The notes below the pieces were generated by a model that did not search any database, was not told the DNA's origin, and saw only the letters and a program-made list of their open reading frames with translations. A program made the position numbers and the translations under genes. Shown here piece after piece: positions 19,454 to 38,420 of a DNA stretch of 64,000 nt (position 1 is its first letter; each line of letters begins with the position of its first letter). Source of the stretch: Clostridia bacterium (GTDB taxonomy: Bacteria; Bacillota; Clostridia; Monoglobales; Monoglobaceae); contig JAFTJA010000012.1 in assembly GCA_017456605.1 (NCBI GenBank), positions 29,833 to 93,832 of the forward strand, given 5' to 3'.

Positions 19454-19468
19454 TACTTTTTATGGAAC

Positions 19469-19642: not shown

Positions 19643-19663
19643 CGCAGGAAATACGTTCCCTTA

Positions 19664-19692: not shown

Positions 19693-19738
19693 CAAGCTTA
19701 ATGATAATTTGAAAGAATTCTTTTTGGAGATGTGATAT

Positions 19739-21100: not shown

Positions 21101-21111
21101 AGGTATTTCTG

Positions 21112-22548: not shown

Positions 22549-22553
22549 TAAAA

Positions 22554-22583
22554 AAGGTAAACCTCATCGGTTTACCTTTTTTT
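22554..22583 (+). terminator. Intrinsic terminator after trkH
   Basis: 10-bp stem aaggtaaacc/ggtttacctt followed by T7. Confidence 0.8.
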
Positions 22584-22676
22584 GCACAAAAACGTAGGGA
22601 TTGTTAGACTTTCCGATAAAAAACCTAATATTTTTTTGGAATTTATAAAAAAATCTTTTTTTTTCTGTGTTTTGTA

Positions 22677-22705
22677 TTGACATTTTTGTGTTAGTATTGT
22701 AAAAT
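22677..22705 (+). promoter_or_regulatory. Sigma-A-type promoter of the GRE-activase-pduU-pduV unit
   Basis: TTGACA - 17 nt - TAAAAT, about 60 nt upstream of the GRE start. Confidence 0.6.
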
Positions 22706-22764
22706 GAAACTAAGATATTATTGATTATAATGAAGTATTATTTTTTGAAAGGGGAGTTTAAGTT

Positions 22765-25287
22765 ATGGCAAGATTTTTCACTGAAGATATTGCAAAAAGT
22801 CCGCGTATTGAAAAGCTTAAGGACAATTTGTTTGCCAAAAAACCGGAAGTTGAAGTTGAACGTGCGGTTTTACTTACTGAATCCTATAAAAATACCGAAG
22901 GCATGCCGATGATTACAAGGCGTGCAAAAGCCTTCAGAAATATTCTTGAAAACCTTCCTATCACAATCAGGGAGCATGAACTTGTTGTAGGAAGTGCTAC
23001 AAAGTCTTCAAGAAGTTGCCAGATTTTCCCGGAGTTTTCTTTCTCTTGGATTGAGGATGAATTTGATACCCTTGAAACAAGGTCTGCTGACCCGTTTGTG
23101 CTTTCAGAGGAATCAAAAAAGGCTCTTGGAGAGGTTTTCAAATACTGGAAAGGAAAAACCACCAGCGAACTTGCAACTTCTTATATGAAGCCTGAAACAA
23201 TAGATGCAATCAGCCACAATGTATTCACACCGGGCAACTATTTTTATAATGGCATAGGTCACGTTACAGCGGACTATGGCAAGGTGCTCGAGATTGGTTT
23301 TGACGGCATCATCAAGCAGGCGAAGGCAGAACGTGCGGCGATTGATGAAACAAAGGGAAATGCCACTGAAAAGAGGGTTTTTCTTGATGCTGTTATTGAA
23401 AGCTGTGAAGCGGTTATCACCTTTGCACAGAGATATTCGCGCCTGGCTTATGAAATGGCTGACAAATGCACAGATGCGGTGCGCCGTGAAGAACTCAAAA
23501 CGATAGGAAAGATATGCAGCCGTGTTCCTCAGTTCGGTGCGGAAAGCTTTTATGAAGCTTGCCAGAGCTTTTGGTTTGTTCAACTTCTTATCCAGACCGA
23601 GTCAAACGGACATTCTATTTCTCCCGGACGTTTTGATGTTTATATGTATCCTTATTTCAAAAAGGATTTCAAAAATGGCAAGATAACACGTGAATTTGCG
23701 CAGGAACTTATAGACTGTGTATGGATAAAGCTCAACGACTTTACAAAAATCAGAGATGCACTTTCTGCAGAAGGCTTTGCAGGATACAGCCTTTTCCAGA
23801 ACCTTATCGCCGGCGGTCAGGACAAAAACGGCATTGATATTACAAATGACTTGTCATTTATGTGTATAAATGCATCATTACATACAATGCTTCCACAGCC
23901 GTCACTTTCTGTTAGAGTGTGGAACAAAACACCTCACGAATTTTTGATGAAAGCGGGCGAGCTTACACGTACGGGCATAGGTCTTCCGGCTTACTACAAT
24001 GATGAAGTTATTATTCCGGCGCTCATAAGCCGTGGTCTTACTTTGGAGGATGCAAGGGAATATAACATTATTGGTTGCGTTGAGCCCCAAAAGGCGGGTA
24101 AAACCGACGGCTGGCACGATGCGGCATTCTTCAATATGTGTAGACCTTTGGAGCTTGTTTTCTCAAACGGTGTTGACGAGGGCAAGCAGATAAGTATAGA
24201 AACCGGTGACATCGCGAAGATGACTACTTTTGATGAGTTCTATGATGCGTATAAAGCCCAGACGGAATATATGATTTCCCTGATGGTGGATGCTGATAAT
24301 GCAATTGACTTGGCCCACGCTCAAAGATGTCCGCTTCCGTTCCTTTCAAGTATGATTGAAGACTGTATCGGCAGAGGAAAGAGTGTTCAGGAGGGTGGTG
24401 CGGTTTATAACTTCACAGGTCCTCAGGGCTTTGGTGTTGCCAATATGGCAGATGCACTTTTTGCAATCAAGAAGCTGGTATTTGAAGAAAGAAAATTCAC
24501 TCTTCCCGAGCTTAAAGAAGCGCTTAAAAATAATTTCGGAAAAGGTGCTGATTCAAAGAACCTTGAAGAAGTCGTTGTGGGCGTTGTCAAAGGCCTTGCT
24601 GAAAAGGGTGTAACCGTTTCAAAAGAACAGATTGAACAAATCTGCAAGAACATACAGGGAAATACTTCGGGCGCAGGTGGCAGAGATGCTGAAATTCTCA
24701 AGATGATTGAGGGCGTTCCCAAGTTCGGAAACGATATATGCGAGGTTGATTCCTTTGCAAGAGACGTTGCATACACATACACAAAACCCATTGAAAAATA
24801 CAAAAATCCCCGTGGTGGAATTTATCATGCAGGACTTTATCCGGTTTCAGCAAACGTTCCCCTTGGTGCACAAACAGGTGCAACCCCTGACGGACGCTTT
24901 GCGAAAACTCCGGTGGCAGACGGCGTATCACCTGCGGCAGGCCGTGACGTAAACGGTCCAACTGCTGCGGCTAACTCTGTTGCAAAGCTTGACCACTTTA
25001 TTGCGTCAAACGGAACGCTGTTCAATATGAAATTCCATCCCTCGGCACTCAAGGGAACATCAGGGCTTGAAAGCTTTGTGGCTCTCATAAGAGGTTACTT
25101 TGACCAGAAGGGAAGCCATATGCAGTTCAACGTAGTAAGCCGCGAAACTCTTCAGGATGCACAGAAAAATCCTGAAAAATACAAGGGACTGGTTGTCAGA
25201 GTCGCAGGTTACAGTGCGCTCTTTACAACGCTTTCAAAATCGCTTCAGGATGACATAATCAACCGAACCGAACAAAAAGGATTCTAA
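22765..25287 (+). CDS. Glycyl radical enzyme, diol-dehydratase-like (probable B12-independent 1,2-propanediol dehydratase)
   Basis: 840 aa PFL-fold protein. Cys loop NIIGCVEPQ (Cys438/Glu440 by my count), GIGH (His166) and C-terminal glycyl radical motif VVRVAGYSALF. BMC context with an aldolase, PduP and PduL. Confidence 0.85.
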   Translation: MARFFTEDIAKSPRIEKLKDNLFAKKPEVEVERAVLLTESYKNTEGMPMITRRAKAFRNILENLPITIREHELVVGSATKSSRSCQIFPEFSFSWIEDEFDTLETRSADPFVLSEESKKALGEVFKYWKGKTTSELATSYMKPETIDAISHNVFTPGNYFYNGIGHVTADYGKVLEIGFDGIIKQAKAERAAIDETKGNATEKRVFLDAVIESCEAVITFAQRYSRLAYEMADKCTDAVRREELKTIGKICSRVPQFGAESFYEACQSFWFVQLLIQTESNGHSISPGRFDVYMYPYFKKDFKNGKITREFAQELIDCVWIKLNDFTKIRDALSAEGFAGYSLFQNLIAGGQDKNGIDITNDLSFMCINASLHTMLPQPSLSVRVWNKTPHEFLMKAGELTRTGIGLPAYYNDEVIIPALISRGLTLEDAREYNIIGCVEPQKAGKTDGWHDAAFFNMCRPLELVFSNGVDEGKQISIETGDIAKMTTFDEFYDAYKAQTEYMISLMVDADNAIDLAHAQRCPLPFLSSMIEDCIGRGKSVQEGGAVYNFTGPQGFGVANMADALFAIKKLVFEERKFTLPELKEALKNNFGKGADSKNLEEVVVGVVKGLAEKGVTVSKEQIEQICKNIQGNTSGAGGRDAEILKMIEGVPKFGNDICEVDSFARDVAYTYTKPIEKYKNPRGGIYHAGLYPVSANVPLGAQTGATPDGRFAKTPVADGVSPAAGRDVNGPTAAANSVAKLDHFIASNGTLFNMKFHPSALKGTSGLESFVALIRGYFDQKGSHMQFNVVSRETLQDAQKNPEKYKGLVVRVAGYSALFTTLSKSLQDDIINRTEQKGF

Positions 25288-25289
25288 GT

Positions 25290-26081
25290 ATGAACAACGA
25301 TTATTTGAACACAAAAGGCAGAATATTTGATATTCAGCGGTTCTCGGTTCATGACGGGCCGGGGGTGCGGACCATCATTTTTCTCAAAGGCTGTTTTTTG
25401 AGGTGCAAGTGGTGCTGCAACCCTGAATCCCAAAACTTTGACATTGAAACAATGACCATTGACGGAAAGGAAAAGGTCATTGGACGTGACGTTACAGTGT
25501 CAGAAATTATGGAAGAAATCGAGAAAGACAGAATTTATTACCGTCGCAGCGGCGGCGGGGTGACCTTGTCCGGCGGAGAGTCACTAAGGCAGCCGGAATT
25601 CGCTGCGGCACTGCTTCGTGCCTGCAAGGAAAAGGGCATCAACACAGCTCTTGAATCAACGGGCTGTGCAAGCTTTGAAAAAATTGAAAAGCTGCTTCCC
25701 TACCTTGATTTGTATCTTATGGATATAAAGCACACAAACAGCGAAAAGCACAGACAGTTTACCACCCAACCGAATGAGCTTATTCTTGAAAATGCAAAGA
25801 AAATTGCCGAAAAGGCAAACCAGCTTATTATAAGAGTTCCCGTGATTCCCACATTCAACGATACGGAAGCTGAGATAAGAGATATTGCAAGATTTGCGAA
25901 GACCTTGAAGAACGTTGATGAATTGCATCTTCTTCCTTATCACCGCCTGGGCGAAGATAAGTATGAGGGGCTTGGCAGAAATTATGAAATGCACGGCATT
26001 GATTTGATTTCTGATGAGCACATCCAAAAACTCAAAGCGGTGGTTGAGGCAGAAGGGCTCAAATGCCAGATAGGAGGTTAA
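25290..26081 (+). CDS. Glycyl-radical-enzyme activating enzyme (radical SAM), short PflA-like form
   Basis: CFLRCKWCCNPE (CxxxCxxC), GGGVTLSGGE. 263 aa with no ferredoxin-like CxxCxxCxxxC insert. Confidence 0.9.
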   Translation: MNNDYLNTKGRIFDIQRFSVHDGPGVRTIIFLKGCFLRCKWCCNPESQNFDIETMTIDGKEKVIGRDVTVSEIMEEIEKDRIYYRRSGGGVTLSGGESLRQPEFAAALLRACKEKGINTALESTGCASFEKIEKLLPYLDLYLMDIKHTNSEKHRQFTTQPNELILENAKKIAEKANQLIIRVPVIPTFNDTEAEIRDIARFAKTLKNVDELHLLPYHRLGEDKYEGLGRNYEMHGIDLISDEHIQKLKAVVEAEGLKCQIGG

Positions 26082-26085
26082 GATA

Positions 26086-26466
26086 ATGGCTGATTGGAAA
26101 GATTTAAGTAGCTTAAGCGACAGAATGAGAATTATTCAGGAGCTTGTTCCGGGCAAACAGATAACACTTGCTCATATCATCGCAAACCCTGACAGAATTC
26201 TTTACAAAAAGCTGGGTCTTGACCCTGCTATTGATTATTCAAAGGCAGCTATCGGGATTGTTACTATGTCACCGGCTGAAACGGCGATTATTGCAGCGGA
26301 TATTGCAATCAAGGCGTCAGGTGCAGAGATTGGCTTTGTTGACCGTTTCAGCGGAACTTTGATAGTTACCGGTACAGTTTCAGAGGTGGAGGCATCACTT
26401 AGGGCGCTTTGTGATTACAGCAAAGAAACATTGGGCTTTACAGTTTGCCCCATTACAAGGACTTAA
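26086..26466 (+). CDS. pduU: Circularly permuted BMC-H shell protein, PduU/EutS type
   Basis: RIIQELVPGKQITLAHIIANP ... EIGFVDRFSGTLIVTG ... CPITRT is colinear with Salmonella PduU as recalled. Confidence 0.88.
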   Translation: MADWKDLSSLSDRMRIIQELVPGKQITLAHIIANPDRILYKKLGLDPAIDYSKAAIGIVTMSPAETAIIAADIAIKASGAEIGFVDRFSGTLIVTGTVSEVEASLRALCDYSKETLGFTVCPITRT

Positions 26467-26469
26467 AGT

Positions 26470-26919
26470 ATGAAAAAGATGATACTGGTGGGCAGGAGTG
26501 AGTGTGGAAAAACAACCCTTACTCAGGCACTCAAAGGCGAAAAGATTGGTTATCACAAAACTCAGTACATAAATTATCACGATATATTGATTGACACTCC
26601 CGGCGAGTATGCGGAAAACAAAATTTTAGGCAGGGCACTTGCTCTTTATTCATATGAGGCAGATGTTGTGGGCTTGCTTCTCAGTGCAAGGGAACAGTAT
26701 TCGTTGTATCCGCCTTGTTGCACTGCCCAGGTAAACCGCGAGGTTATTGGAATTGTAACCCAGATTGACCAGCCTGATGCAAACCCCGAGCAGGCAGCCA
26801 GATGGCTGGAACTTGCGGGTTGTGAAAAGATTTTCTTCGTAGCATCCACAACGGGGGAAGGTATACAGGAACTGATTGATTATCTTGCAGAAGAGAGAAA
26901 ACCACAAAAATTTAGGTAA
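26470..26919 (+). CDS. pduV: EutP/PduV-family small GTPase
   Basis: P-loop GRSECGKTTL, DTPGEY. About 149 aa, placed next to pduU. Confidence 0.85.
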   Translation: MKKMILVGRSECGKTTLTQALKGEKIGYHKTQYINYHDILIDTPGEYAENKILGRALALYSYEADVVGLLLSAREQYSLYPPCCTAQVNREVIGIVTQIDQPDANPEQAARWLELAGCEKIFFVASTTGEGIQELIDYLAEERKPQKFR

Positions 26920-26955
26920 AAACAACAAAAACAAAGAAAAAAACACAAAAAACCA

Positions 26956-26984
26956 TTGACACGACGGTATATATATGGTATTAT
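26956..26984 (+). promoter_or_regulatory. Internal sigma-A-type promoter (extended -10) for the aldolase...deoR unit
   Basis: TTGACA - 17 nt - TATTAT, preceded by TGg. No terminator hairpin lies between pduV and this site. Confidence 0.6.
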
Positions 26985-27039
26985 ATATGTAGGTAAATAT
27001 GAATTAAATTAAAAAGTTTATATAAAGGAGAAAACGATT

Positions 27040-27852
27040 ATGATGTCAGAGTACGAAATTAAAAAGCAAATTTGTGACATTGGCAAGAGAATTTATGACA
27101 GAAGAATGGTTGCTGCAAACGACGGTAACATTTCTGTTAAAATCTCCGACAATGAGTATCTTTGCACACCTACTGGCGTAAGCAAAGGTTTTATGACACC
27201 AGAGTACATATGCAAAATTGATGGTGACGGAAATGTTCTTCAGGCAAACAAAGGTTTTAAACCATCATCGGAAATCAAGATGCACCTTAGAGTTTACAAG
27301 CATCGTCCTGATGTTCAGGCGGTTGTTCATGCGCATCCTATTTATGCAACAAGCTTTGCTATTGCAGGAAAGCCTTTGACACAGCCTATTATGCCTGAAG
27401 CAGTTATCGCACTTGGTTGTGTTCCCATTGCAGAATACGGCACACCTTCAACAAATGAAATTCCTGACGCAGTAGAGAAATATCTTCCCTACTACGATGC
27501 GGTTCTTCTTGAAAACCACGGAGCACTTGCTTATTCCGATTCGCTTCTTGCGGCTTATCACAAGATGGAATCACTTGAGTTCTATGCAGAGCTTTTGTTC
27601 CTTTCAAATCAGCTTGGCGGACCTCAGGAATTCTCAAAAGAACAGCTCAAAAAGCTTTATGATGTAAGACGTGCATTTGGTATGACAGGAAAGCATCCGG
27701 CGAGCCTTTGTCCCAACAACAAAAACGGCGGTATGAGCTGTCATAACTGCCATATTCCGGATTGTGCGGTTGCAGAAGAAGGTCAGGCTGGTGACAACAA
27801 GGAACTTATTGCCCAGATTACAAAGAAGGTTATGGACCAGCTTGGAAAATAG
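27040..27852 (+). CDS. Class II aldolase (L-fuculose/rhamnulose-phosphate aldolase-like) with a C-terminal Cys4 motif and encapsulation peptide
   Basis: Class II aldolase/adducin motifs (AANDGNISV, VVHAHPIYAT, ENHGALAY). The tail is CPNNKNGGMSCHNCHIPDC followed by the amphipathic NKELIAQITKKVMDQLGK. Confidence 0.85.
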   Translation: MMSEYEIKKQICDIGKRIYDRRMVAANDGNISVKISDNEYLCTPTGVSKGFMTPEYICKIDGDGNVLQANKGFKPSSEIKMHLRVYKHRPDVQAVVHAHPIYATSFAIAGKPLTQPIMPEAVIALGCVPIAEYGTPSTNEIPDAVEKYLPYYDAVLLENHGALAYSDSLLAAYHKMESLEFYAELLFLSNQLGGPQEFSKEQLKKLYDVRRAFGMTGKHPASLCPNNKNGGMSCHNCHIPDCAVAEEGQAGDNKELIAQITKKVMDQLGK

Positions 27853-27869
27853 TGCGGGGAGGTATCGTT

Positions 27870-28361
27870 ATGGATGACGAAAAGCTTGCTCGTATTGTAG
27901 AAGCTACTTTGAAACAACTTACCGAAACAAACGCCGATGAAAAAGGCTTTGGTCTTAAAGCGGCAAAAAGGCTTATTGCACTGGTTGAAGAAAAGGCAAA
28001 ACAGATGGGTGTAAATGCGGTTGTTGCGGTGTCAACTCCTGCGGGAAGACCCATTGCCATTGAATGTATGGATAATTCGTACATAGCGAGCTTTGATGTT
28101 GCACTGAAGAAGGCATACACGGTGGTTGCACTTAAAATGTCCACAAAAAAACTGAGTACTCTGGCTGCTCCGGGCGGGTCGCTTTATGGAATTCAGTTCA
28201 CAAATGACGGACAGATTGTTATATTCGGTGGTGGTGACCCACTGATATATCACGGGAAAATTATCGGCGGACTGGGCGTCAGCGGCGGTACAGAAGAACA
28301 GGACACTGCTCTTTCGGCGTATGGTGCTTCGCTCATCGATGAAATTATGAAAGATTTTTAA
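27870..28361 (+). CDS. DUF336 / GlcG / PduO-C-terminal-like (putative heme-binding) protein with an N-terminal encapsulation peptide
   Basis: ATG 27870 after GGGGAGG. EKLARIVEATLKQL helix, then DUF336 core motifs (AVVAVSTPAGRPIA, IGGLGVSGGTEEQD). Confidence 0.75.
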   Translation: MDDEKLARIVEATLKQLTETNADEKGFGLKAAKRLIALVEEKAKQMGVNAVVAVSTPAGRPIAIECMDNSYIASFDVALKKAYTVVALKMSTKKLSTLAAPGGSLYGIQFTNDGQIVIFGGGDPLIYHGKIIGGLGVSGGTEEQDTALSAYGASLIDEIMKDF

Positions 28362-28378
28362 GAAGGGAGAGATTTTAG

Positions 28379-29578
28379 TTGAATAACAACGAAATAGAAC
28401 AGATTGTAAAACAAGTTCTTGCAGGTATGCAGGGCACAACATCTGGCAGCACAGCTCCAAAGACAGCGGGCCCGATACCCTCAAGAAGTCGTGTGGCAAT
28501 GCTTACCGGGATTGAAAAAATCGAAATTCAGGAATATGACATTCCTGAAATCGGCGATGACGATATTCTGGTGAAGGTTGAAGGCTGTGGCATTTGCGGA
28601 ACTGACGCTCATGAATATAAGCGTGATCCTTTTGGACTTATTCCGGTTGTTCTCGGACATGAGGGAACAGGCGAAATAGTAAAAATGGGTAAAAATGTCA
28701 AGAAAGACAGCGCAGGAAAGCCTTTGGCAATTGGTGACAAGGTTGTTACTTGTATGATTTTCAAAGACAATCCTGACATTACAATGTATGACCTCAACAA
28801 GCAAAACGTAGGAGGTGGCGACATTTACGGACTTATTCCGGACAATGAAACTCACTTTAACGGTTGGTTTGCTGATTATCTGGTAATTAAGGGAGGTTCA
28901 ACGGTATTCAATGTATCTGACCTTGACCTTGATTCAAGAATTCTTATTGAACCTTGTGCAGTTCTTATCCATGCGGTAGAACGTGCAAAGACAACAGGAA
29001 TACTTAAATTCAACAGCCGCGTTGTTGTTCAGGGCTGCGGACCTATCGGTCTTATCTGTATAGCAGTTCTCAGAACAATGGGTATTCAAAACATTACAGC
29101 GGTTGACGGCGAACAGAAACGTCTTGACTTTGCAAAACGTATGGGCGCAGACAAAACAGTTAACTTCAAAGACCATAGCGGCATTGAAGCTTTGGCTGGG
29201 GCTGTTAAAGACAGCTTTGGCGGATATTTTGCAGATTTTGCATTCCAGTGTACTGGTTCACCTGTCGCACACAGCAATATCTACAAATTTATCAGAGATG
29301 GCGGCGGACTTTGTGAACTTGGCTTCTTCATCAATGGTGGAGACGCTCAAATCAATCCGCACTTTGACCTTTGCTCAAAGGAAATCACTTTGGTTGGTTC
29401 ATGGGTATATACACTTCGTGATTATGCAACAACCTTTGATTTTCTCAAGAGAGCAATAGCAATCGGACTTCCCATCAAGGAGCTTATCACACACAAGTAT
29501 CCTCTCGACAAAATCAATGATGCATTTGTCACAAATGTTAAGATGGAAGGTCTCAAGATTGCAGTTATCAATGAATAA
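28379..29578 (+). CDS. Zinc-dependent (MDR family) alcohol dehydrogenase with an N-terminal encapsulation peptide
   Basis: TTG start after GAAGGGAGAG. NEIEQIVKQVLAGM plus a Gly/Ser/Thr/Pro linker, then CGICGTDAHE, GHEGTGEIV and the Rossmann motif VQGCGPIGL. Confidence 0.85.
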   Translation: MNNNEIEQIVKQVLAGMQGTTSGSTAPKTAGPIPSRSRVAMLTGIEKIEIQEYDIPEIGDDDILVKVEGCGICGTDAHEYKRDPFGLIPVVLGHEGTGEIVKMGKNVKKDSAGKPLAIGDKVVTCMIFKDNPDITMYDLNKQNVGGGDIYGLIPDNETHFNGWFADYLVIKGGSTVFNVSDLDLDSRILIEPCAVLIHAVERAKTTGILKFNSRVVVQGCGPIGLICIAVLRTMGIQNITAVDGEQKRLDFAKRMGADKTVNFKDHSGIEALAGAVKDSFGGYFADFAFQCTGSPVAHSNIYKFIRDGGGLCELGFFINGGDAQINPHFDLCSKEITLVGSWVYTLRDYATTFDFLKRAIAIGLPIKELITHKYPLDKINDAFVTNVKMEGLKIAVINE

Positions 29579-29617
29579 TAATTAACAATTTTAAAATATT
29601 TTAGGAGGAATTTTAAA

Positions 29618-29893
29618 ATGGCACAGGAAGCATTAGGTATGATAGAAACAAGAGGTTTGGTTGCAGCAATCGAGGCAGCCGACGCAATGGTAAAGGCTGC
29701 TGAGGTAGTTCTCATCGGCACAGAAAAGATTGGTTCAGGCTTGGTGAGTGTTATGGTTCGCGGTGATGTTGGCGCTGTTAAAGCTGCTGTTGAAGCAGGC
29801 GGTCAGTGCGCACAGCGACTTGGCGAAATCGTAGCTACACACGTAATTCCGAGACCTCACAGTGATGTTGAAAAGATTTTGCCTAAGTTCTAA
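29618..29893 (+). CDS. BMC-H hexamer shell protein (PduA/EutM type)
   Basis: [37 protein letters not shown]...[25 protein letters not shown] is a canonical Pfam00936-type domain. Confidence 0.93.
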
Positions 29894-29910
29894 AGAAAGA
29901 GTGATTTAGT

Positions 29911-30303
29911 ATGGCAACAACAAAAAAGACCGTAATTGCAAATACGGAAGCATTGAAAAATAATGAAGCCGAGGTTAAAGAAACCAAGGCTGTTGAAAAA
30001 AAGGTTGTAAAGGAGGAAAAAAGAATGGCACAGGAAGCATTGGGTATGGTGGAAACAAGAGGCTTGGTTGCAGCAATCGAAGCAGCAGATGCTATGCTTA
30101 AGGCTGCTAACGTAACTCTCGTTGGCACAGAAAAGATTGGTTCAGGTCTTGTAAGTGTTATGGTTCGCGGTGATGTAGGCGCTGTTAAGGCTGCTGTTGA
30201 AGCAGGCGGTCAGTGTGCACAGAAGCTTGGTGAAATCATTGCTACACACGTTATTCCCAGACCTCACACAGATGTTGAGAAGATATTGCCTATCCTTAAA
30301 TAA
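29911..30303 (+). CDS. BMC-H hexamer shell protein, paralog; long form with a 38-aa Lys/Glu-rich N-extension (alternative start ATG 30025)
   Basis: The core from M39 is nearly identical to the preceding gene. A strong AAGGAGG lies 8 nt before ATG 30025, and only a weak RBS precedes 29911, so the true start is ambiguous. Confidence 0.85.
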
Positions 30304-30327
30304 GAGGATACTGGGCAGGCGACTTAA

Positions 30328-30351
30328 GGGACGGAGCTTTTGCTCTGTCCC
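30328..30351 (+). other. Intercistronic stem-loop after the major shell genes
   Basis: gggacggagc-tttt-gctctgtccc (10 bp, one G-U pair) with no following T run. Confidence 0.5.
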
Positions 30352-30383
30352 AACGGTCTGCTAATCCGGAAAGGAAGAATGTT

Positions 30384-30650
30384 ATGATTATTGGAAAGGT
30401 GCTTGGAAGCGTTGTTTCAACTCGCAAGAACGAAAACCTTGTGGGAAACAAGTTTATGATTGTTGAACCTGTTAAATCAATGGCTAAAGAAAATTCAAGA
30501 ATTATTGCTGTTGACAACATAGGCGCAGGAATTGGTGAATATGTTCTGGTTGCTCTTGGCAGCGCAGCAAGAATCGGATGCGGAAAAGAAACATCACCTA
30601 TTGATGCGGCGATTGTCGGAATTATTGACGACGGCGAAAGTTTTAAATAA
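30384..30650 (+). CDS. BMC-P pentamer vertex protein (EutN/PduN/CcmL family)
   Basis: MIIGKVLGSVVSTRKNENLVGNKFMIVEPV...VDNIGAGIGEYVLVALGSAAR. 88 aa. Confidence 0.9.
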   Translation: MIIGKVLGSVVSTRKNENLVGNKFMIVEPVKSMAKENSRIIAVDNIGAGIGEYVLVALGSAARIGCGKETSPIDAAIVGIIDDGESFK

Positions 30651-30689
30651 AGACCGGAAAACTGATTTTTAAGGAAGGGGGAGCTATTT

Positions 30690-32030
30690 ATGCAGTTTGC
30701 AGAGCTTAATGGACTTATGAAAGAATGCGGAATAGTGGGTGCCGGTGGCGCAGGATTCCCCTCTTATGCAAAGCTTTCGGAAAAAGCTGAAACGATTATT
30801 CTGAATTGTGCCGAATGTGAGCCGCTTTTCAGGCTTCACAGACAGCTTCTTTCGGCTTATGCAAAAGAAATTTTGACCGCTCTTGATGCAGTGAGAGAGT
30901 CGGTCGGTGCAAAAAATGCCATTGTTGGCATAAAGGCAGCGTACAGTGAAACAGTTGAAGAACTAAACGAACACATAGGCGCTTTCAAAAACATTGAAAT
31001 TTCACTTTTACCTGAGGTTTATCCGGCAGGTGATGAAATTGTTCTTATTTATGAAACAACCGGCAAGGTGGTAAAACCCGGACAGCTTCCCATTTCGGAG
31101 GGGGTTATTGTGTATAATGTAGAAACTATGCTCAATATTCACTTTGCTATTACAGAAAAAAAACCGGTTTGCTACAAGTACGTTACTGTGGCGGGCGAGG
31201 TAAAAACCCCTATGACTTACAAGGTTCCACTTGGTGTGCCGCTTAAAAAAGTGGTGGAACTTTCCGGCGGGGAAACAGTCAAAGACTGTGTTTATTTGAG
31301 CGGCGGAGCAATGACAGGAAAAGTGGCAAGCAAGAATGATGTTGTCACAAAGACCACAAATGCAGTTTTGGTACTGCCGAAAAACCATCCTGTCATTATG
31401 AAAAAGAAAACAAATTCAAAAGTTAATATATACAGGGCTATGAGTGCGTGTTGTCAGTGCAGAATGTGTACCGATATGTGCTCAAGAAATCTTTTGGGAC
31501 ATCCCATTGAGCCGCATTTATTTATGAGAGCGGCGGCAAAGGGTATGACAAAAGATATAACAGCAATGATGAACTCAATGTATTGTTCACAGTGCGGAAT
31601 ATGCAGTATGTATGCCTGCCATCAGGGACTTTCACCGTCGATGCTTATTGGTGAATTCCGTGACGAAATAAGAAAACGAGGTATAAAGCCTTTGGAGGAG
31701 CCTAAGTTTTCGGGAGTGAATGAACACAGAAAGTATAGAACACTTCCTATGGAAAGACTGGTTTCAAGACTGGGCATTTCAAAATATGATGTAGAGGCCC
31801 CACTTGATGACAGCCCTCAGGATTTTTCAAAAAGTCTCAAATCCCTCAAGATAATGCTCAGACAGCACATTGGTCAGCCGGCAAAACCCGTGGTTAGCGT
31901 GGGGACATCGGTCAAGGCATTTGAGAAGTTGGCGAGCTGTGAGGGGTTGGGTGCTGAAATTCACAGCCCGGTTGATGGCGTTATAAAGGAAATAACAGAA
32001 AATTATATTTTGCTTGATATAAAGCGGTAG
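30690..32030 (+). CDS. pduS: PduS-like flavo/iron-sulfur oxidoreductase (RnfC/Nqo1-like)
   Basis: GIVGAGGAGFPSYAKL, SLBB region, two 4Fe-4S motifs (CCQCRMCTDMC and CSQCGICSMYAC), and a C-terminal RnfC-N-like barrel (HIGQPAKPVVSVGTSV). Confidence 0.85.
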   Translation: MQFAELNGLMKECGIVGAGGAGFPSYAKLSEKAETIILNCAECEPLFRLHRQLLSAYAKEILTALDAVRESVGAKNAIVGIKAAYSETVEELNEHIGAFKNIEISLLPEVYPAGDEIVLIYETTGKVVKPGQLPISEGVIVYNVETMLNIHFAITEKKPVCYKYVTVAGEVKTPMTYKVPLGVPLKKVVELSGGETVKDCVYLSGGAMTGKVASKNDVVTKTTNAVLVLPKNHPVIMKKKTNSKVNIYRAMSACCQCRMCTDMCSRNLLGHPIEPHLFMRAAAKGMTKDITAMMNSMYCSQCGICSMYACHQGLSPSMLIGEFRDEIRKRGIKPLEEPKFSGVNEHRKYRTLPMERLVSRLGISKYDVEAPLDDSPQDFSKSLKSLKIMLRQHIGQPAKPVVSVGTSVKAFEKLASCEGLGAEIHSPVDGVIKEITENYILLDIKR

Positions 32031-32049
32031 AAAGGGAGGAAACAGACAA

Positions 32050-32598
32050 ATGGGAAAAGCATTGGCGATGGCTGAATTTACGACGGTTTCCACCGGTATG
32101 AAGGCCGCTGATATGATGGTTAAGACAGCCGAAGTAAACGTTATTGAGGCTGAGGTTGTCTGCCCGGGGAAATATATAATCCTGATTGAGGGTGATTTGA
32201 GTGCGGTGAGGGCTTCGGTTGATACCGTCAAAAATATGTTCCCCGAAAAGCTAATTGACAGCTTTGTATTGGGAAATCCTCATGAAACAATTTTCCCTGC
32301 AATTTATGGTACTACTGAGGTGAAAGATAAACGTGCTCTCGGAATTTTGGAAACTTATTCTGCAGCGTCGATTATCCTGGCCGCAGATATCGCAGCAAAA
32401 ACTGCGATTGTTGATTTGATTGAGCTTCGTATTGCGAGGGGTATGTGCGGAAAATCGTATATGCTGCTTACCGGTGAGGTTGCTGCGGTTGAATCGGCAA
32501 TAGAAAAGGCAAAACGTGAAGTAAGTGACGGAACGATGTTTCTTGACAGTTCGGTTATTGCAAGTCCTGATGATAAGATGTGGAATACAATTATATAA
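32050..32598 (+). CDS. pduT: BMC-T tandem-domain shell protein, PduT type (pore 4Fe-4S cysteine)
   Basis: 182 aa, two BMC domains. The VVCPGKY motif aligns with the Cys38 ICPGK of Salmonella PduT as recalled. Confidence 0.88.
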   Translation: MGKALAMAEFTTVSTGMKAADMMVKTAEVNVIEAEVVCPGKYIILIEGDLSAVRASVDTVKNMFPEKLIDSFVLGNPHETIFPAIYGTTEVKDKRALGILETYSAASIILAADIAAKTAIVDLIELRIARGMCGKSYMLLTGEVAAVESAIEKAKREVSDGTMFLDSSVIASPDDKMWNTII

Positions 32599-32617
32599 AA
32601 GTTTGAGGTGAATAGAT

Positions 32618-34009
32618 ATGTTTGATGAAAAGGATATAAGTCGTATAGTTGAAAGTGTTATCCAGAATATGGACGGAAAGGTAGTGCCCAAGAAAAATCT
32701 CAAGGGCGTTTTCCCCACAATGACAGAGGCACTGGAGGCGGTTTCAAAAGCTTACATTCAGTATAAGAGCTATACTGTTGAGCAGAGAGAAAAGATGATT
32801 GCAGCAATCCGTCGTCTTACCTTGGAAGAAGCTGAAGAAATGGCAAAGCTTGGCGTTGAAGAAACCGGTATGGGAAGAGTTTCTGACAAAATTATCAAAC
32901 ACCAGTTGGTTGCAAACAAGACTCCGGGAACTGAGGATCTTTGTCCTACTGTCAAAACAGGTGACTGCGGTCTTACTTTGATTGAAATGGCACCTTATGG
33001 TGTTATTGGAAGCATCACTCCTTCAACAAACCCAAGTGAAACTGTTATTTGCAATTCAATCGGTATGATTGCCGGTGGAAATGCAGTTGTATTCAATCCT
33101 CATCCAAATGCAAAGAGGATTGCAAACTATGCAGTTGACCTTGTTAACCGTGGAATTCTGGAAGCAGGCGGTCCTGAAAATCTGGTTGTTTCTGTCGAAA
33201 ATCCAACTATGGATTCATCAAACGAAATGGTTGGTTCGCCACTTGTTAAAATGCTTGTTGCAACAGGCGGCCCCGGTGTTGTAAAGATGCTCCTTTCTTC
33301 AGGAAAGAAGGCGATCGGTGCTGGCGCGGGAAATCCTCCTGTTATCGTTGATGACACAGCAGATGTTGAAAAAGCAGCATCGGATATTATAAAAGGCGCA
33401 AGCTTTGACAACAATCTTCCCTGTATTGCAGAAAAGGAATGTTTCGTTTTTGATTCGGTTGCTGACCAACTGGTCCTTCATATGCAGAGAAACGGTGCAT
33501 ATCTCTTAAAAGGCGCACAGATTGACAAGCTTGTGAAAGTTGCTTTGGTTGAAAAAGACGGCAAGTTTGGCATAAACAAAAAGTGGGTAGGAAAGGATGC
33601 TAAGCTGTTCCTTAAAGAACTTGGAATAGATGCAGACCCAAGACTTATCATCTGTGAAACAGATGCAAAGCATCCCTTTGTTCAGGTTGAAATGATGATG
33701 CCAATTCTTCCCATCGTAAGAGTGAAGAATATCGAAGAGGCTATTACAGAAGCTTGCAAAGCTGAACACGGAAACAGACACTCCGCTCACATTCATTCAA
33801 AAAATGTTGACAGACTTACAGCATTTGCAAGAGCGGTTGAAACAACAATTTTTGTAAAGAATGCTCCTTCTTATGCAGGCATTGGTGCCGGTGGAGAAGG
33901 CCACACTACATTTACTATTGCGGGCCCCACAGGTGAAGGTATTACATCAGCAAGGTCGTTTACACGCCAGAGAAGATGTGTTATGGCGGATGGTCTCCAC
34001 ATAGTTTAA
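32618..34009 (+). CDS. pduP: CoA-acylating aldehyde dehydrogenase (PduP/EutE family) with an N-terminal encapsulation peptide
   Basis: DISRIVESVIQNM helix, then the ALDH fold with the catalytic PCIAEKE motif. Confidence 0.9.
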   Translation: MFDEKDISRIVESVIQNMDGKVVPKKNLKGVFPTMTEALEAVSKAYIQYKSYTVEQREKMIAAIRRLTLEEAEEMAKLGVEETGMGRVSDKIIKHQLVANKTPGTEDLCPTVKTGDCGLTLIEMAPYGVIGSITPSTNPSETVICNSIGMIAGGNAVVFNPHPNAKRIANYAVDLVNRGILEAGGPENLVVSVENPTMDSSNEMVGSPLVKMLVATGGPGVVKMLLSSGKKAIGAGAGNPPVIVDDTADVEKAASDIIKGASFDNNLPCIAEKECFVFDSVADQLVLHMQRNGAYLLKGAQIDKLVKVALVEKDGKFGINKKWVGKDAKLFLKELGIDADPRLIICETDAKHPFVQVEMMMPILPIVRVKNIEEAITEACKAEHGNRHSAHIHSKNVDRLTAFARAVETTIFVKNAPSYAGIGAGGEGHTTFTIAGPTGEGITSARSFTRQRRCVMADGLHIV

Positions 34010-34034
34010 TTTTAACGAAAAGGATTGTTCATAA

Positions 34035-34679
34035 ATGAAAGCATTAGGAATGATAGAAGTTTATAGTTTTACGACTGCGGTGGTTGCTGCTGACCTTTGC
34101 GCAAAAGCCGCAGACGTAAAAGTTATTGCCTTTGACAGAAACCGTCCCAAGAGCGCAGATGCTCCTGCACCGCTGGTTATGCAGATAAAAATTGCGGGAA
34201 ATGTTGCGGCGGTTAAGGCTGCTGTGGAAGCAGGAACTGAATATGCAAAGGCAGAGGGCAAGCATATTGTTTCACACGTTATACCAAATCCTGGTGACGG
34301 CGTTGAAAAAATGGCTTATCGCCTTGATATAAACAAGGATAAATACAACAAAAAGCTTCCAAAGGACTTTATGAATGAGGAAGAAATAAACGGCGACTCT
34401 GTTGGCGCAGAAACCATAGGTCTTCTTGAAATAGACGGCTTGGTTGCAGCTATTGAGGGTCTTGATTCTATGACAAAAGCTGCGAATGTAAGGGTTATTC
34501 ACTCTGAAAAGCGTCTTGGAGGAAGACTTGTTACGTTTATTGTTGCCGGTGAAGTTTCAGCGGTTAAGGCTGCGGTGGAAGCAGGCTATCAGAATGCACA
34601 GCCCCTTGGCAAGGTTTATGGCAAGGCTGTTGTTGCAAGACCTCACAGAGAGGTTACCAAGTTCTTTGATATGGACTGA
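34035..34679 (+). CDS. Non-permuted tandem BMC-domain shell protein (BMC-T-like, 214 aa) with an expanded pore loop in domain 1
   Basis: Domain 1 is MKALGMIEVYSFTTAVVAADLCAKAA... with RNRPKSADAPAPL replacing the usual KIGSG loop. A 30-aa linker follows, then domain 2 (ETIGLLEIDGLVAAIEGLDSMTKAA...KRLGGRL). Confidence 0.8.
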   Translation: MKALGMIEVYSFTTAVVAADLCAKAADVKVIAFDRNRPKSADAPAPLVMQIKIAGNVAAVKAAVEAGTEYAKAEGKHIVSHVIPNPGDGVEKMAYRLDINKDKYNKKLPKDFMNEEEINGDSVGAETIGLLEIDGLVAAIEGLDSMTKAANVRVIHSEKRLGGRLVTFIVAGEVSAVKAAVEAGYQNAQPLGKVYGKAVVARPHREVTKFFDMD

Positions 34680-34754
34680 TTTTTAAAAGGGACAATCCGG
34701 AAAGACGGAAATATAAATCAGGGGCAAAATGCTGCTGCCTGAGAGGTGAAACTT

Positions 34755-35393
34755 ATGTATTATGATGCAGATACAATCGCAAAGGCTGTTCAAAATGTTA
34801 TTAAAGATATAAACAACGACGGCGAAATCAAGGTAGGTGTTTCTCAGCGACATATTCATTTGTCTCAAGAAGACCTTGAAATCCTGTTTGGTAAAGGTTA
34901 TCAGCTGACCATTAAAAAATATCTTATGGGGCGCGAATATGCGTCGAATGAGGTTGTAACATTGGTTGGACCGTCACTTAAGGCTATTGAAAATGTTCGT
35001 GTTCTTGGCCCGGTGAGAAACAAAACACAGGTTGAGATTTCGAGAACAGATACATTTATCCTGAAAGTGAGTCCTCCGGTGAGGCCGTCAGGTCAGGTCG
35101 AGGGTTCTGAAAAATTGGTGGTTGTTGGGCCAAAAGGCAGTGTATATCTCAAAGAAGGCGTAATAATTGCCAATCGGCACATCCATCTTACACCTGAATA
35201 TGCCATGGCAAATGGTATAAAAGACAACGATTATGTCGATGTTGAGGTAGAGGGAGTAAAGCCTACCCGATTTTATGACGTTCAGGTCAGGGTGAGAGAT
35301 GATTTCAATGTTGAAATGCATATTGATACTGACGATGCAAACTCTGCAGGACTTAAAAATGGTGCCAAGGTGAAAATCTTGAAGAAAAAATAA
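34755..35393 (+). CDS. pduL: Phosphate propanoyl/acyl-transferase PduL with an N-terminal encapsulation peptide
   Basis: ATG 34755 after GAGAGG. ADTIAKAVQNVIKDI helix, then duplicated PduL motifs (GVSQRHIHLS, IANRHIHLTP). Confidence 0.88.
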   Translation: MYYDADTIAKAVQNVIKDINNDGEIKVGVSQRHIHLSQEDLEILFGKGYQLTIKKYLMGREYASNEVVTLVGPSLKAIENVRVLGPVRNKTQVEISRTDTFILKVSPPVRPSGQVEGSEKLVVVGPKGSVYLKEGVIIANRHIHLTPEYAMANGIKDNDYVDVEVEGVKPTRFYDVQVRVRDDFNVEMHIDTDDANSAGLKNGAKVKILKKK

Positions 35394-35416
35394 GAATCGC
35401 GAAAGTGGGGAATAAT

Positions 35417-36184
35417 ATGCTTGCACTTGAACGACAAAAGAAGATACTGGAATTTTTAAATACTGACGGGGTTGTTTCGGTAAACCGTCTGAGTAGTACT
35501 TTGGGAGTTACCGAAGAAACGGTGAGACGTGACCTTGAAAAGCTTGAAAAACAAGAGTCTCTGCGCAGGACACACGGCGGTGCGGTTCCTGTCGAAGGAA
35601 GCACCCATGAGTTTTCTTTGGAAAAGAGAAAAAATCTCAATGTTGAAGCAAAGCAGAAGATTGCAAGGGAAGCTGCGAAGATGGTTGTTGACGGTGATAC
35701 GATTTTTCTGGATGCATCGACAACCACGTTCTTTATGGCAAAAGAGCTTAAAACACGCAAAAATCTCACCGTTATTACCAATTCACTCAGGGTTGTGACA
35801 GAGCTTTCGGGCTGTGAATATATAAAGGTGATACTGGTGGGGGGCGTACTTAGCCGCAACCAGTCGTTTGTGGGAAGACTTGCAGAAAAAAGCATTGAAG
35901 AAGATTATTTTGCAAACAAGATGTTCTTTTCGAGCAAGGGCATAACAGCGGATGTCGGAATCCTTGAAAGCAACGAATCCGAAAGCGGCATCAAGCAGAG
36001 AATGTTTGAAAATTCCAATGAGAAATATTATCTTTGCGACAATGGCAAAATCGGCGGTGTTGGCTTTGTGAAGCTAGCGTCTATTGGTGAAATTGATTTC
36101 CTGATTACAAACGCGACACTTGATGACCGGCTCAAAGAAAAGCTTGCTGAAAGCGAAGTTGAAATCGTACAGATTTCTGAATAA
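35417..36184 (+). CDS. DeoR-family transcriptional regulator
   Basis: N-terminal HTH (RQKKILEFLNTDGVVSVNRLSSTLGVTEETVRRDLEKLE) and a C-terminal sugar-phosphate-sensor domain. Confidence 0.88.
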   Translation: MLALERQKKILEFLNTDGVVSVNRLSSTLGVTEETVRRDLEKLEKQESLRRTHGGAVPVEGSTHEFSLEKRKNLNVEAKQKIAREAAKMVVDGDTIFLDASTTTFFMAKELKTRKNLTVITNSLRVVTELSGCEYIKVILVGGVLSRNQSFVGRLAEKSIEEDYFANKMFFSSKGITADVGILESNESESGIKQRMFENSNEKYYLCDNGKIGGVGFVKLASIGEIDFLITNATLDDRLKEKLAESEVEIVQISE

Positions 36185-36196
36185 ATCGAAGATTGT

Positions 36197-36231
36197 GGGT
36201 CTGAAACCAAAAGGTTTCAGGCTCTTTTTTT
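36197..36231 (+). terminator. Intrinsic terminator closing the BMC locus
   Basis: 12-bp stem (two G-U pairs), aaaa loop, then T7. Confidence 0.8.
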
Positions 36232-36245
36232 GTGTAAAAAATTTG

Positions 36246-36280
36246 ATATTGTGTTTTGAATATCGGCAAAAACACAATAT
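36246..36280. repeat. Perfect 12-bp inverted repeat ATATTGTGTTTT-N11-AAAACACAATAT
   Basis: Read directly. Followed by a tandem TTACAATT-aaa-TTACAATT and long A/T tracts. Confidence 0.8.
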
Positions 36281-36333
36281 GGCGAAATGTTACAATTAAA
36301 TTACAATTTTTTTAAAAAAATTTAAAAAAACTA

Positions 36334-36362
36334 TTGCAAAAGTCCCAAAAGTGTAGTATTAT
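36334..36362 (+). promoter_or_regulatory. Sigma-A-type promoter of the dcw operon (PmraZ)
   Basis: TTGCAA - 17 nt - TATTAT. Confidence 0.55.
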
Positions 36363-36404
36363 ATAGGAAAGTGGCATGAAGTGGAGCAAAATTCCATAAA
36401 GTGG
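36348..36404 (+). promoter_or_regulatory. Phased direct repeats AAAGTG(T/G)/GAAGTGG, candidate MraZ operator
   Basis: Boxes start at 36348 (AAAGTGT), 36368 (AAAGTGG), 36378 (GAAGTGG) and 36398 (AAAGTGG), with spacings of 20/10/20 nt. They overlap and follow the -10 element. Confidence 0.6.
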
Positions 36405-36438
36405 AACAAAAACAGAAATTTATGAGGAGAGCAAGGCT

Positions 36439-36864
36439 ATGCTTATCGGTGAATATTTTCATAACCTTGATACCAAGGGCAGAGTAAGCATTCCATCTAA
36501 GTTCAGAGATGATCTGGGTGGAACTTTTGTGTTGTCCAAAGGCGTAAATGACTGTTTGTGTGCATATTCCAAGGAAGAATGGGAAGGCTTCAAGGAAGAA
36601 CTTCTTGGGCTCCGCGGTGCGGATGCGCGTATGCTTCGCAGATTTTTCTTTTCAGGTGCCACTGAATGCGAGATTGACACACAGGGCAGAGTGGTGATTC
36701 CGCCGCTTTACCGTGAATATGCGGGGCTTGGCCGTGAGGTTGTCATTGTTGGTGTTTCAAATTGTATGGAAATCTGGGACAAGGCTGCCTGGGAGAAATA
36801 TATGCAGAACCCGGCACTTGAGTCTGCAGAGATCGAAAACGCTATGGAGCGTCTTGGACTATGA
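36439..36864 (+). CDS. mraZ: Transcriptional regulator MraZ
   Basis: Two SpoVT/AbrB-like halves with DTKGRVSIPSKFR and DTQGRVVIPPLYR. Confidence 0.93.
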   Translation: MLIGEYFHNLDTKGRVSIPSKFRDDLGGTFVLSKGVNDCLCAYSKEEWEGFKEELLGLRGADARMLRRFFFSGATECEIDTQGRVVIPPLYREYAGLGREVVIVGVSNCMEIWDKAAWEKYMQNPALESAEIENAMERLGL

Positions 36865-37802: not shown

Positions 37803-37821
37803 ATTTTGAGGTGAAGCAAAA

Positions 37822-38328: not shown

Positions 38329-38420
38329 AAGATAAGTTCGTTTTGGTATATTTAAATTGCCATATGAAATATAATTTATAGTGGCATATTCTAAACCGAT
38401 TTATTCGTTTGGAGGTAACT

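Follow-up and report, generated by a model that had tools for sequence, protein, structure and literature searches.

A stretch of 64,000 nucleotides from a Clostridia bacterium of the Monoglobaceae (NCBI GenBank assembly GCA_017456605.1, contig JAFTJA010000012.1, positions 29,833 to 93,832 of the forward strand), herein termed the window, contains 16 co-directional plus-strand genes at positions 22765 to 36184. These very probably encode a complete metabolosome of the glycyl radical enzyme microcompartment type GRM5, which would carry out the lower part of the fermentation of L-fucose and L-rhamnose. An earlier reading of the same DNA by a model that saw only the letters and their open reading frames (ORFs), herein called the first-pass annotation, had already proposed a fucose/rhamnose-type locus, and every published feature of GRM5 that can be judged from sequence is found in it.

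Class assignment and the glycyl radical enzyme

Loci of the glycyl radical enzyme microcompartment (GRM) group are defined by a glycyl radical enzyme (GRE), an activase, and shell genes (PMC6325248). The locus encodes a GRE with the domains PF01228 and PF02901, an activase with PF04055, and shell proteins with PF00936 and PF03319. GRM5 is distinguished by a propanediol-type GRE, a PF00596 aldolase, a "lactaldehyde reductase" with PF00107/PF08240, and the presence of PduS and PduT together with the absence of GrpU (PMC6325248, PMC4207490). In a sequence-level comparison, the GRE of the window scores highest with the diol dehydratase of Roseburia inulinivorans (RiDD), and it has a CXE motif and a propanediol-type pocket. 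The PF00596 aldolase carries a C-terminal encapsulation-type helix, the dehydrogenase combines PF00107 with PF08240, and PduS and PduT are present and GrpU absent. PduS and PduT occur in 57 of 57 published GRM5 loci, and an activase without the ferredoxin-like insertion of ~70 aa is unique to this type (PMC6325248); the activase of the window is of this short form. The internal insertion of the GRE (residues 594–641) and the core enzymes PduP and PduL are found as well, in addition to a DeoR regulator and DUF336, which are typical ancillary genes of GRM5 (PMC4207490). The first-pass annotation had spoken of several nonstandard details in the cargo and shell set; instead, the Zn-dependent alcohol dehydrogenase (Zn-ADH), DUF336, PduS, PduT, and DeoR are canonical GRM5 components.

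Growth on fucose and rhamnose raises the expression of the homologous locus of Clostridium (Lachnoclostridium) phytofermentans 15- to 87-fold (PMC3557285), and polyhedral bodies as well as the production of propanol and propionate are documented for it (PMC3557285, PMC6325248). Experimental evidence of this kind for GRM5 comes solely from this species and R. inulinivorans. The first-pass annotation had also pointed out, as an oddity, that a sugar transporter, isomerase, and kinase are missing from the locus. None of these is present among the Pfam-scanned ORFs, which cover ~22 kb upstream as well as 36.4–37.8 kb and 48–64 kb downstream; the scan of the flanks omitted the ORFs at ~37.8–48.3 kb and four upstream ORFs, the latter carrying Pfam marks on related contigs. 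The observation itself therefore holds for the scanned ORFs. It is, however, no oddity, because C. phytofermentans keeps its fucose genes (Cphy_3153–3155, 2010–2012) and rhamnose genes (Cphy_1146–1149, 0580–0584) at four other loci (PMC3557285), making such a separation the norm.

The GRE contains the cysteine loop GCVEP from residue 437 and the glycine loop RVAGYS from residue 812, both of which had been recognized on first reading. Its top matches in the PDB are the crystallized RiDD structures 5i2a and 5i2g, with 1240 bits over the aligned residues 3–837. Herein, 533 of 835 residues are identical (64%), and the alignment contains a single two-residue indel. Since no indel occurs before residue 633 of the alignment to 5i2a, both enzymes share the same numbering up to this point; the radical glycine Gly815 is the counterpart of Gly817 in RiDD. 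The numbering of His166, Phe344, Cys438, and Glu440, which the first-pass annotation had given for the Roseburia enzyme, is exact by direct count and by this alignment. Other structures score lower: glycerol dehydratase of Clostridium butyricum reaches 1068 bits, CutC ~530–615, HypD 517, and IslA 418.

Nine checked positions are identical to RiDD, i.e., His166, Ser284, Phe344, Cys438, Glu440, Asp452, Tyr692, Val694, and Gly815, and Cys438 and Glu440 are the residues given for propanediol dehydratase in a 2026 review (PMC13450708). The residues Tyr339 and Ser642 of glycerol dehydratase align to Phe344 and Val694 of this GRE. According to the 2016 structure paper on the Roseburia enzyme, its Phe344 and Val696 reportedly exclude the third hydroxyl of glycerol. 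Where CutC of Klebsiella pneumoniae has Asp, Thr, and Tyr, the GRE has His166, His451, and Phe455. With the CutC model TIGR04394, it reaches 612 bits where the cutoff is 1050 and is hence not assigned to CutC; with the sulfopropanediol dehydratase model, it scores 715 bits, far under the cutoff of 1000. A pocket of the CutC type or of another characterized GRE class was what the first-pass annotation had expected to see if its reading were wrong. Such a pocket is not seen, because the discriminating residues differ in the alignments. Judged by these alignments, the pocket is of the propanediol type and neither of the glycerol nor of the CutC type.

Residues 594–641 of the GRE form an insertion without counterpart in glycerol dehydratase; it shares just 10 of its 48 residues with RiDD and contains two amphipathic segments. 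An internal insertion of ~60 aa is the predicted intramolecular encapsulation peptide of GRM3, GRM4, and GRM5 enzymes (PMC6325248, PMC5311937). The insertion of the window's GRE matches this peptide and is thus a putative targeting element. The activase aligns to TIGR02494 with 310 bits in two stretches, skipping ~36 profile positions after the CX3CX2C motif. It contains no second cysteine cluster CX2CX2CX3C and therefore represents the short form without a ferredoxin-like insert.

Aldolase and proposed pathway

The aldolase consists of a core (residues 1–215), a Cys/His segment (218–237), a variable linker, and a C-terminal amphipathic helix (KELIAQITKKVMDQL). It extends ~55 residues past the FucA core, with the terminal sequence KELIAQITKKVMDQLGK. 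The catalytic Glu78 and the Zn-binding His97, His99, and His160 are conserved. Its best FucA model in NCBIfam yields 123 bits against a cutoff of 250. It is hence a FucA-like family member, whose presumed substrate is assigned by context.

When each GTDB species was represented by a single genome, a pattern scan found relatives of the extended aldolase in at least 599 genomes. The best 80 of these species-level loci form the synteny set, onto which the 16 window proteins were mapped. All 80 belong to Clostridia, among them Oscillospiraceae, Acutalibacteraceae, Christensenellales-like metagenome-assembled genomes (MAGs), and Lachnospiraceae (e.g., Mediterraneibacter and Anaerocolumna). The C-terminal amphipathic helix of the aldolase is kept in 80 of these 80 species, as a pattern rather than as a sequence. 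Encapsulation of the aldolase is a well-supported prediction because a C-terminal encapsulation peptide on class II aldolases of bacterial microcompartments (BMCs) has already been described (PMC4594438). The Zn-ADH begins with an N-terminal amphipathic helix and linker of ~45 aa, and its top PDB match 1vj0 starts at query residue 49. The N-terminal pattern xxIExIVKQVL is conserved in the 28 loci compared, and a homolog of the enzyme occurs in 76 loci. By its domains, the Zn-ADH is of the GRM5 "lactaldehyde reductase" type.

From the protein families and by analogy with work on C. phytofermentans and R. inulinivorans, the following route is proposed. L-Fuculose-1-phosphate or L-rhamnulose-1-phosphate would be supplied by cytosolic enzymes encoded elsewhere and split by the aldolase into dihydroxyacetone phosphate, which would exit to glycolysis, and L-lactaldehyde. 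The latter would be reduced to (S)-1,2-propanediol by the Zn-ADH with NADH, and the GRE, once activated by the radical S-adenosylmethionine (SAM) activase, would dehydrate propanediol to propionaldehyde. PduS and PduT may relay electrons to the activase. PduP would then form propionyl-CoA, restoring the NADH spent by the Zn-ADH, and PduL would form propionyl-phosphate and recycle CoA. A kinase from outside the locus would finally yield propionate and ATP, and part of the propionaldehyde may alternatively be reduced to 1-propanol. The shell would confine both aldehydes and shield the radical enzyme.

Several points weigh against this assignment. The aldolase is only ~30% identical to characterized FucA enzymes and reaches no equivalog cutoff of NCBIfam, the top model being 3-oxo-tetronate-4-phosphate decarboxylase with 136 bits against 250; its substrate is therefore taken from context. 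Its encapsulation is predicted. The locus encodes a single alcohol dehydrogenase, and the identity of the lactaldehyde reducer is disputed: Petit 2013 (PMC3557285) favors PduS, whereas later papers (PMC6325248) favor the Zn-ADH; the propanol-forming enzyme is likewise unsettled. The search for fucose and rhamnose isomerase and kinase genes was confined to the 64-kb window. The source is a MAG of an uncultured Clostridia bacterium, and its GRM5 function is predicted from sequence.

Identity to RiDD at all nine pocket and catalytic positions, and discriminating sites unlike those of glycerol dehydratase and CutC, make it very unlikely that the locus handles a different substrate pair, in which the aldolase would cleave another (deoxy)ketose phosphate and the GRE would act on another diol or amino-alcohol product (e.g., glycerol, choline, or a sulfonated diol). 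Such a pair would fit the aldolase staying under all curated equivalog cutoffs, and GRE eliminase annotations within GRM types can be imprecise (2026 review, PMC13450708). The 715 bits of the GRE on the sulfopropanediol dehydratase model also lean this way but fall far short of the cutoff of 1000. A further argument against such a pair is that Lachnospiraceae GRM5 loci whose gene order has been studied by experiment contain orthologs of the aldolase with 71–92% identity.

The organelle could also serve mainly the use of exogenous 1,2-propanediol from neighboring fermenters, as GRM3 and the propanediol utilization (PDU) organelle do, with the aldolase and Zn-ADH being accessory or cytosolic. 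A core of GRE, PduP, and PduL suffices in GRM3 (PMC5311937), sugar uptake and kinase genes are missing from the scanned parts of the window, and the GRE–activase–pduU–pduV block has a promoter of its own, apart from the aldolase block. Such a restriction is nevertheless improbable: the aldolase has its targeting-type helix in all of the best 80 species and the Zn-ADH a conserved N-terminal one; each of the 54 loci with sufficient flanking sequence has inherited aldolase, Zn-ADH, PduS, and PduT together; and C. phytofermentans also stores its sugar genes elsewhere, yet fucose and rhamnose induce its locus (PMC3557285). This estimate refers to propanediol as the sole role; propanediol use and the sugar route are mutually compatible.

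Apart from the assignment to GRM5, the aldolase exhibits two features of its own. The Cys/His segment (27691–27750, residues 218–237) contains the motif [KR]HPAxxC-x6-9-CH-x-C, which is invariant in 80 of 80 species-level homologs from the best 80 loci and has the spacing x9 in the window. One to three additional cysteines follow within 14 residues in 73 of the 80, here Cys242 (27763–27765). The linker between aldolase core and targeting helix was described as unconserved (Aussignargues 2015). A profile of the segment gave only chance matches among PDB sequences (E = 0.16 and 0.46). An AlphaFold2 model of the aldolase from a 26-sequence alignment is poor (mean predicted local distance difference test score 55, tail <50) and uninformative on this segment; it places the C-terminal helix at 253–267. 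Tentatively, the segment might be an unrecognized metal- or iron–sulfur-binding module, which could form a structural Zn knuckle or else link the aldolase, through redox chemistry or docking, to the electron path of PduS, PduT, and the activase; this possibility is rated well below even chances.

The second feature concerns the inheritance of the aldolase gene. On L014, the contig of the closest species-level relative, the aldolase (5733–6542) is only 78% identical to that of the window, although GRE (95%), PduU (99%), PduT (99%), and PduP (97%) are close. It is 91% identical in the more distant L005, whose GRE is 84% identical, and 92% in L007, a contig of 4.3 kb. This suggests allele exchange or mosaicism of the aldolase gene between lineages.

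Locus architecture, regulation, and shell

Pfam domains agree with the labels of the first-pass annotation for all 16 genes from GRE to DeoR. Its count of 17 genes is a miscount, since its own list sums to 16; no free ORF of at least 25 aa was found in any intergenic gap. The six largest minus-strand ORFs of the locus have zero Pfam matches. The consecutive NCBI protein numbers (GRE MBQ9757771, aldolase ending in 75, the two BMC-H in 78 and 79, BMC-T in 84) are consistent with 16 genes as well. The two flanking terminators claimed earlier were recovered as hairpins after trkH and after deoR. Pfam also bears out that the cluster is flanked by trkAH and the dcw operon, with trkA and trkH upstream and mraZ and mraW downstream. 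All features are compiled in Table 1.

Table 1. Features of the GRM5-type locus in window coordinates
Feature	Position	Strand	Length	Characteristics
Bidirectional hairpin terminator	22550..22582	none		14-pair stem, A-run and T-run on either side; directly after trkH; upstream locus boundary
Promoter-like site P1	22677..22705	+		TTGACA-17-TAAAAT; 11/12 matches; 60 nt upstream of GRE gene
GRE, 1,2-propanediol dehydratase type	22765..25287	+	840 aa	Pfam PFL-like and Gly_radical; PDB 5i2a 1240 bits
GRE-activating radical SAM enzyme	25290..26081	+	263 aa	Pfam Radical_SAM and Fer4_12 only; CX3CX2C at C35, C39, C42
Permuted BMC-H, PduU/EutS type	26086..26466	+	126 aa	Pfam BMC; top PDB 4axi (EutS), 3cgi (PduU), E ~1e-32
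PduV/EutP-family small GTPase	26470..26919	+	149 aa	Pfam PduV-EutP, 169 bits
Internal promoter-like site P2	26956..26984	+		TTGACA and extended -10 TGgTATTAT; 11/12 matches, TG present; in 120-nt gap before aldolase gene
Class II (FucA-like) aldolase	27040..27852	+	270 aa	Pfam Aldolase_II; top PDB matches L-fuculose-phosphate aldolases
DUF336/HbpS-like (PduO C-terminal domain-like)	27870..28361	+	163 aa	Pfam HbpS-like; N-terminal amphipathic extension
Zn-dependent medium-chain dehydrogenase	28379..29578	+	399 aa	Pfam ADH_N and ADH_zinc_N; TTG start, GGGAGAG ribosome-binding site
BMC-H, PduA-like	29618..29893	+	91 aa	Pfam BMC, 100.8 bits
Second BMC-H	29911..30303	+	130 aa	Pfam BMC at residues 43–118; 38-aa N-terminal extension
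BMC-P pentamer (vertex) protein	30384..30650	+	88 aa	Pfam EutN_CcmL, 106 bits
PduS-like flavo-iron-sulfur oxidoreductase	30690..32030	+	446 aa	Pfam Complex1_51K, SLBB, Fer4_17, RnfC_N
PduT-like tandem BMC-T	32050..32598	+	182 aa	Pfam BMC x2; pore cysteine Cys38
PduP-type CoA-acylating aldehyde dehydrogenase	32618..34009	+	463 aa	Pfam Aldedh; NCBIfam NF011927 686 bits vs cutoff 403; N-terminal encapsulation-like helix
Second tandem BMC protein, CcmO-like	34035..34679	+	214 aa	Pfam BMC x2 (two canonical domains); top PDB 6ner (BMC-H tandem fusion)
PduL phosphotransacylase	34755..35393	+	212 aa	Pfam PTAC, 235.7 bits; N-terminal encapsulation-like helix
DeoR-family regulator	35405..36184	+		Pfam HTH_DeoR and DeoRC sugar-phosphate sensor domain; 11 nt after pduL
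Intrinsic terminator	36197..36231	+		12-bp stem, T7 run; hairpin 36197–36224 directly after deoR; downstream boundary

The cluster breaks into a housekeeping region (aminoacyl-tRNA synthetases, trkAH, dcw, secA), as would be expected if it were a recently transferred island without current function or a decaying or silent remnant. This has only a very slight chance of being true. All 16 ORFs are intact and preceded by ribosome-binding sites, with intergenic distances of −1 to 120 nt; the GC content equals that of the flanks, and both promoters are conserved. Relatives with a GRE identity of only 84–95% likewise have the cluster between trkH and mraZ, and the proteins are conserved at 99–100% in four independent assemblies. 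Six metagenome contigs encode an identical GRE protein, and the four that were retrieved (L001–L004) share the gene order and the trkA–trkH flank, with intact ORFs.

For the GRM5-type locus, transcription would most likely start from two conserved σ70-type promoters, which precede the GRE and aldolase genes, respectively. The TTGACA and −10 elements of P1, whose −35 hexamer coincides with the start coordinate 22677 of the first-pass annotation, are conserved in L014, L005, L008, and L006, and the flanking sequence diverges. The TTGACA and TGGTA elements of P2 are invariant in six species, and the spacer varies. Because P1 and P2 are conserved in relatives while their surroundings drift, two transcription units are suggested, GRE–activase–pduU–pduV and aldolase to deoR. 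The co-transcribed DeoR regulator probably controls the locus by sensing a sugar phosphate, as the usual ligands of its family imply. It stays under every equivalog cutoff of NCBIfam. No riboswitch or other known RNA was detected in an Rfam scan of 19000–39000.

Upstream of the P2 TTGACA, an A/C-rich tract (AAAAACAACAAAAACAAAGAAAAAA.CACAAAAAAC) lies in the pduV–aldolase gap (26918–26984). Six species retain this tract, whereas their spacers and the sequence further downstream differ; it may represent an UP element or the binding site of a regulator.

Three gene orders prevail in the synteny set. The order of Lachnospiraceae and C. phytofermentans is seen in 21 loci, the order of the window (ZnADH … PduS-PduT-PduP-BMC-T-PduL-DeoR) in 16, and an Acutalibacteraceae-type order with DeoR ahead of PduP in 11. 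Gene presence was counted in the 54 loci whose sequence continues for at least 9.3 kb past the aldolase: Zn-ADH, BMC-P, PduS, and PduT occur in 54 of 54 each, DeoR in 53, PduP and PduL in 52 each, and DUF336 in 45. Of the 59 loci that extend far enough upstream, 41 have the GRE gene directly upstream. Only the closest relatives L005, L008, and L014 (GRE 84–95% identical) share the location between trkAH and mraZ/mraW. DeoR is 54–85% identical among loci with the window's gene order, as opposed to only 33–46% when compared with the regulators of the other two orders; since its identity splits by gene order, the regulator lineage tracks the locus architecture.

The shell complement comprises two BMC-H proteins, a permuted PduU-type BMC-H, the iron–sulfur BMC-T PduT, a second BMC-T, and one BMC-P. 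The CcmO-like second BMC-T is found in 16 of the 54 related loci and is essentially confined to the window's gene order. For the permuted BMC-H, an identity as GrpU was considered and dismissed, as EutS and PduU are closest and the motif G-X-C-P-Q-N/H (PMC6325248) is missing. The N-terminal extension of the second BMC-H (29911–30024) is rich in Lys, Glu, and Thr, and NCBI annotates just the 92-aa core. An in-frame low-complexity extension of ~25–110 aa, beginning with MAxxKK and ending with KEEK[RK]M, stays open in most related loci; the long form is for this reason probably real. Both long and short forms occur among database proteins.

The N termini of Zn-ADH, DUF336, PduP, and PduL exhibit amphipathic segments of the xxIExIVxxVL type followed by variable linkers. 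The hydrophobic moments of the targeting-type segments amount to 1.4–2.3, corresponding to the 90th to >99th percentile of all 16-mers of the locus proteins (mean 0.76, 95th percentile 1.45). The terminal helix pattern is conserved over dozens of species while the linkers vary, and the N-terminal pattern of DUF336 is present in most relatives. Two start sites were chosen within longer ORFs. The DUF336 ORF opens at GTG 27852, and gene callers start at ATG 27870, giving the 163-aa product of L001–L004; the PduL ORF opens at GTG 34746, and ATG 34755 gives the 212-aa product called in L001 and L002. A circular permutation of PduS, considered in view of its C-terminal RnfC_N domain, was dismissed, as this domain comes last in canonical PduS (PMC6325248).

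The scanned remainder of the window is of housekeeping nature: Lon, several aminoacyl-tRNA synthetases, a sigma factor, ftsQ, ftsZ, RNase R, and SecA, as well as a DNA ligase that was recognized from gene marks on related metagenome contigs. Upstream of trkA, a gene for a 462-aa protein with a Cu_amine_oxidN1 "stalk" domain (18065–19453) sits in the stretch of lowest GC content in the window (0.325 for 18001–20000). It varies among otherwise identical contigs, being absent from L003 and duplicated with different neighbors on L002. On the minus strand at 57007–60299, an 874-aa protein with phosphodiester glycosidase (NAGPA) and SLH domains adjoins a CBM9 carbohydrate-binding protein. This pair is related to cell-surface glycans and comprises the sole carbohydrate-linked genes in the scanned parts of the window. 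At 11745–12968, downstream of a gene of the sigma-70 family, a 407-aa ORF is without Pfam matches at E ≤ 1e-5; its 403-aa homolog called on related metagenome contigs is likewise without Pfam matches.

Relation to known systems and biological meaning

The closest described systems are the GRM5 loci of C. phytofermentans (Cphy_1174–1187) and R. inulinivorans, which possess the same enzyme set (Petit 2013; Scott 2006; Zarzycki 2015; Ferlez 2019). Shared with them are the GRE, the short activase, PduU, an aldolase with C-terminal peptide, Zn-ADH, PduP, PduL, a PduN-type BMC-P, PduS, PduT, and a DeoR/SrlR-like regulator. The order differs, being Ald-DUF336-ZnADH-H-H-P-PduS-PduT-PduP-BMC-T-PduL-DeoR in the window as opposed to Ald-(DUF336)-PduP-ZnADH-H-x-H-PduL-P-PduS-PduT-DeoR in Lachnospiraceae. 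In addition, the window variant contains the CcmO-like tandem BMC-T, as well as PduV and DUF336, which are missing from the published C. phytofermentans table. Its regulator is apparently co-transcribed, whereas that of C. phytofermentans is monocistronic.

GRM3 of Rhodopseudomonas palustris BisB18 and Escherichia coli, which serves B12-independent propanediol use, likewise combines a GRE with internal insertion and a PduP and PduL core (PMC5311937). However, it has no aldolase or Zn-ADH, and its activase carries the ferredoxin-like insertion. The GRE of GRM3 is ~52% identical to the GRM5 enzyme (PMC5311937), and the content of PduS, PduT, and GrpU varies among GRM3 loci (PMC6325248). The PVM and PVM-like microcompartments of Planctomycetes and Verrucomicrobia contain a homologous class II aldolase with C-terminal peptide as signature enzyme and a DeoR regulator, and they encapsulate lactaldehyde derived from fucose and rhamnose. 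Unlike the window locus, they have no GRE or activase, and their core enzymes take lactaldehyde directly, without a propanediol step. The PDU organelle of Salmonella shares homologs of PduA/J-like BMC-H, PduU, PduT, PduN, PduS, PduP, PduL, and PduV as well as the path from propionaldehyde via propionyl-CoA to propionyl-phosphate. It relies instead on the B12-dependent PduCDE with B12-recycling enzymes, and the cleavage of fuculose-phosphate and the reduction of lactaldehyde are cytosolic.

The locus is hence an uncharacterized member of a well-described BMC type, and GenBank already lists its proteins with unremarkable MAG annotations. It mainly confirms a known system and leaves the current understanding unchallenged. 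Four aspects go beyond the literature: the Cys/His motif of the aldolase, the BMC-H extension, the promoter inside the cluster, and the variant gene order that includes an additional BMC-T. For the engineering of BMCs, the locus offers a compact B12-independent pathway of 13.5 kb, in which five enzymes carry terminal targeting-type helices and the GRE an internal one, along with two conserved promoters.

GRM5 was first catalogued in a few dozen Firmicutes and is very common in gut Clostridia, where at least 599 species-level genomes possess the extended aldolase. It occurs in three stable gene orders, and the one of the window is part of the core genome, placed between trkAH and the cell-division operon and equipped with an extra tandem shell protein. 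The lineage may originate from the ruminant gut, as judged solely from the "XIEF21" sample-name labels. It likely ferments deoxy-sugars from mucin and plant pectin to propionate or propanol.

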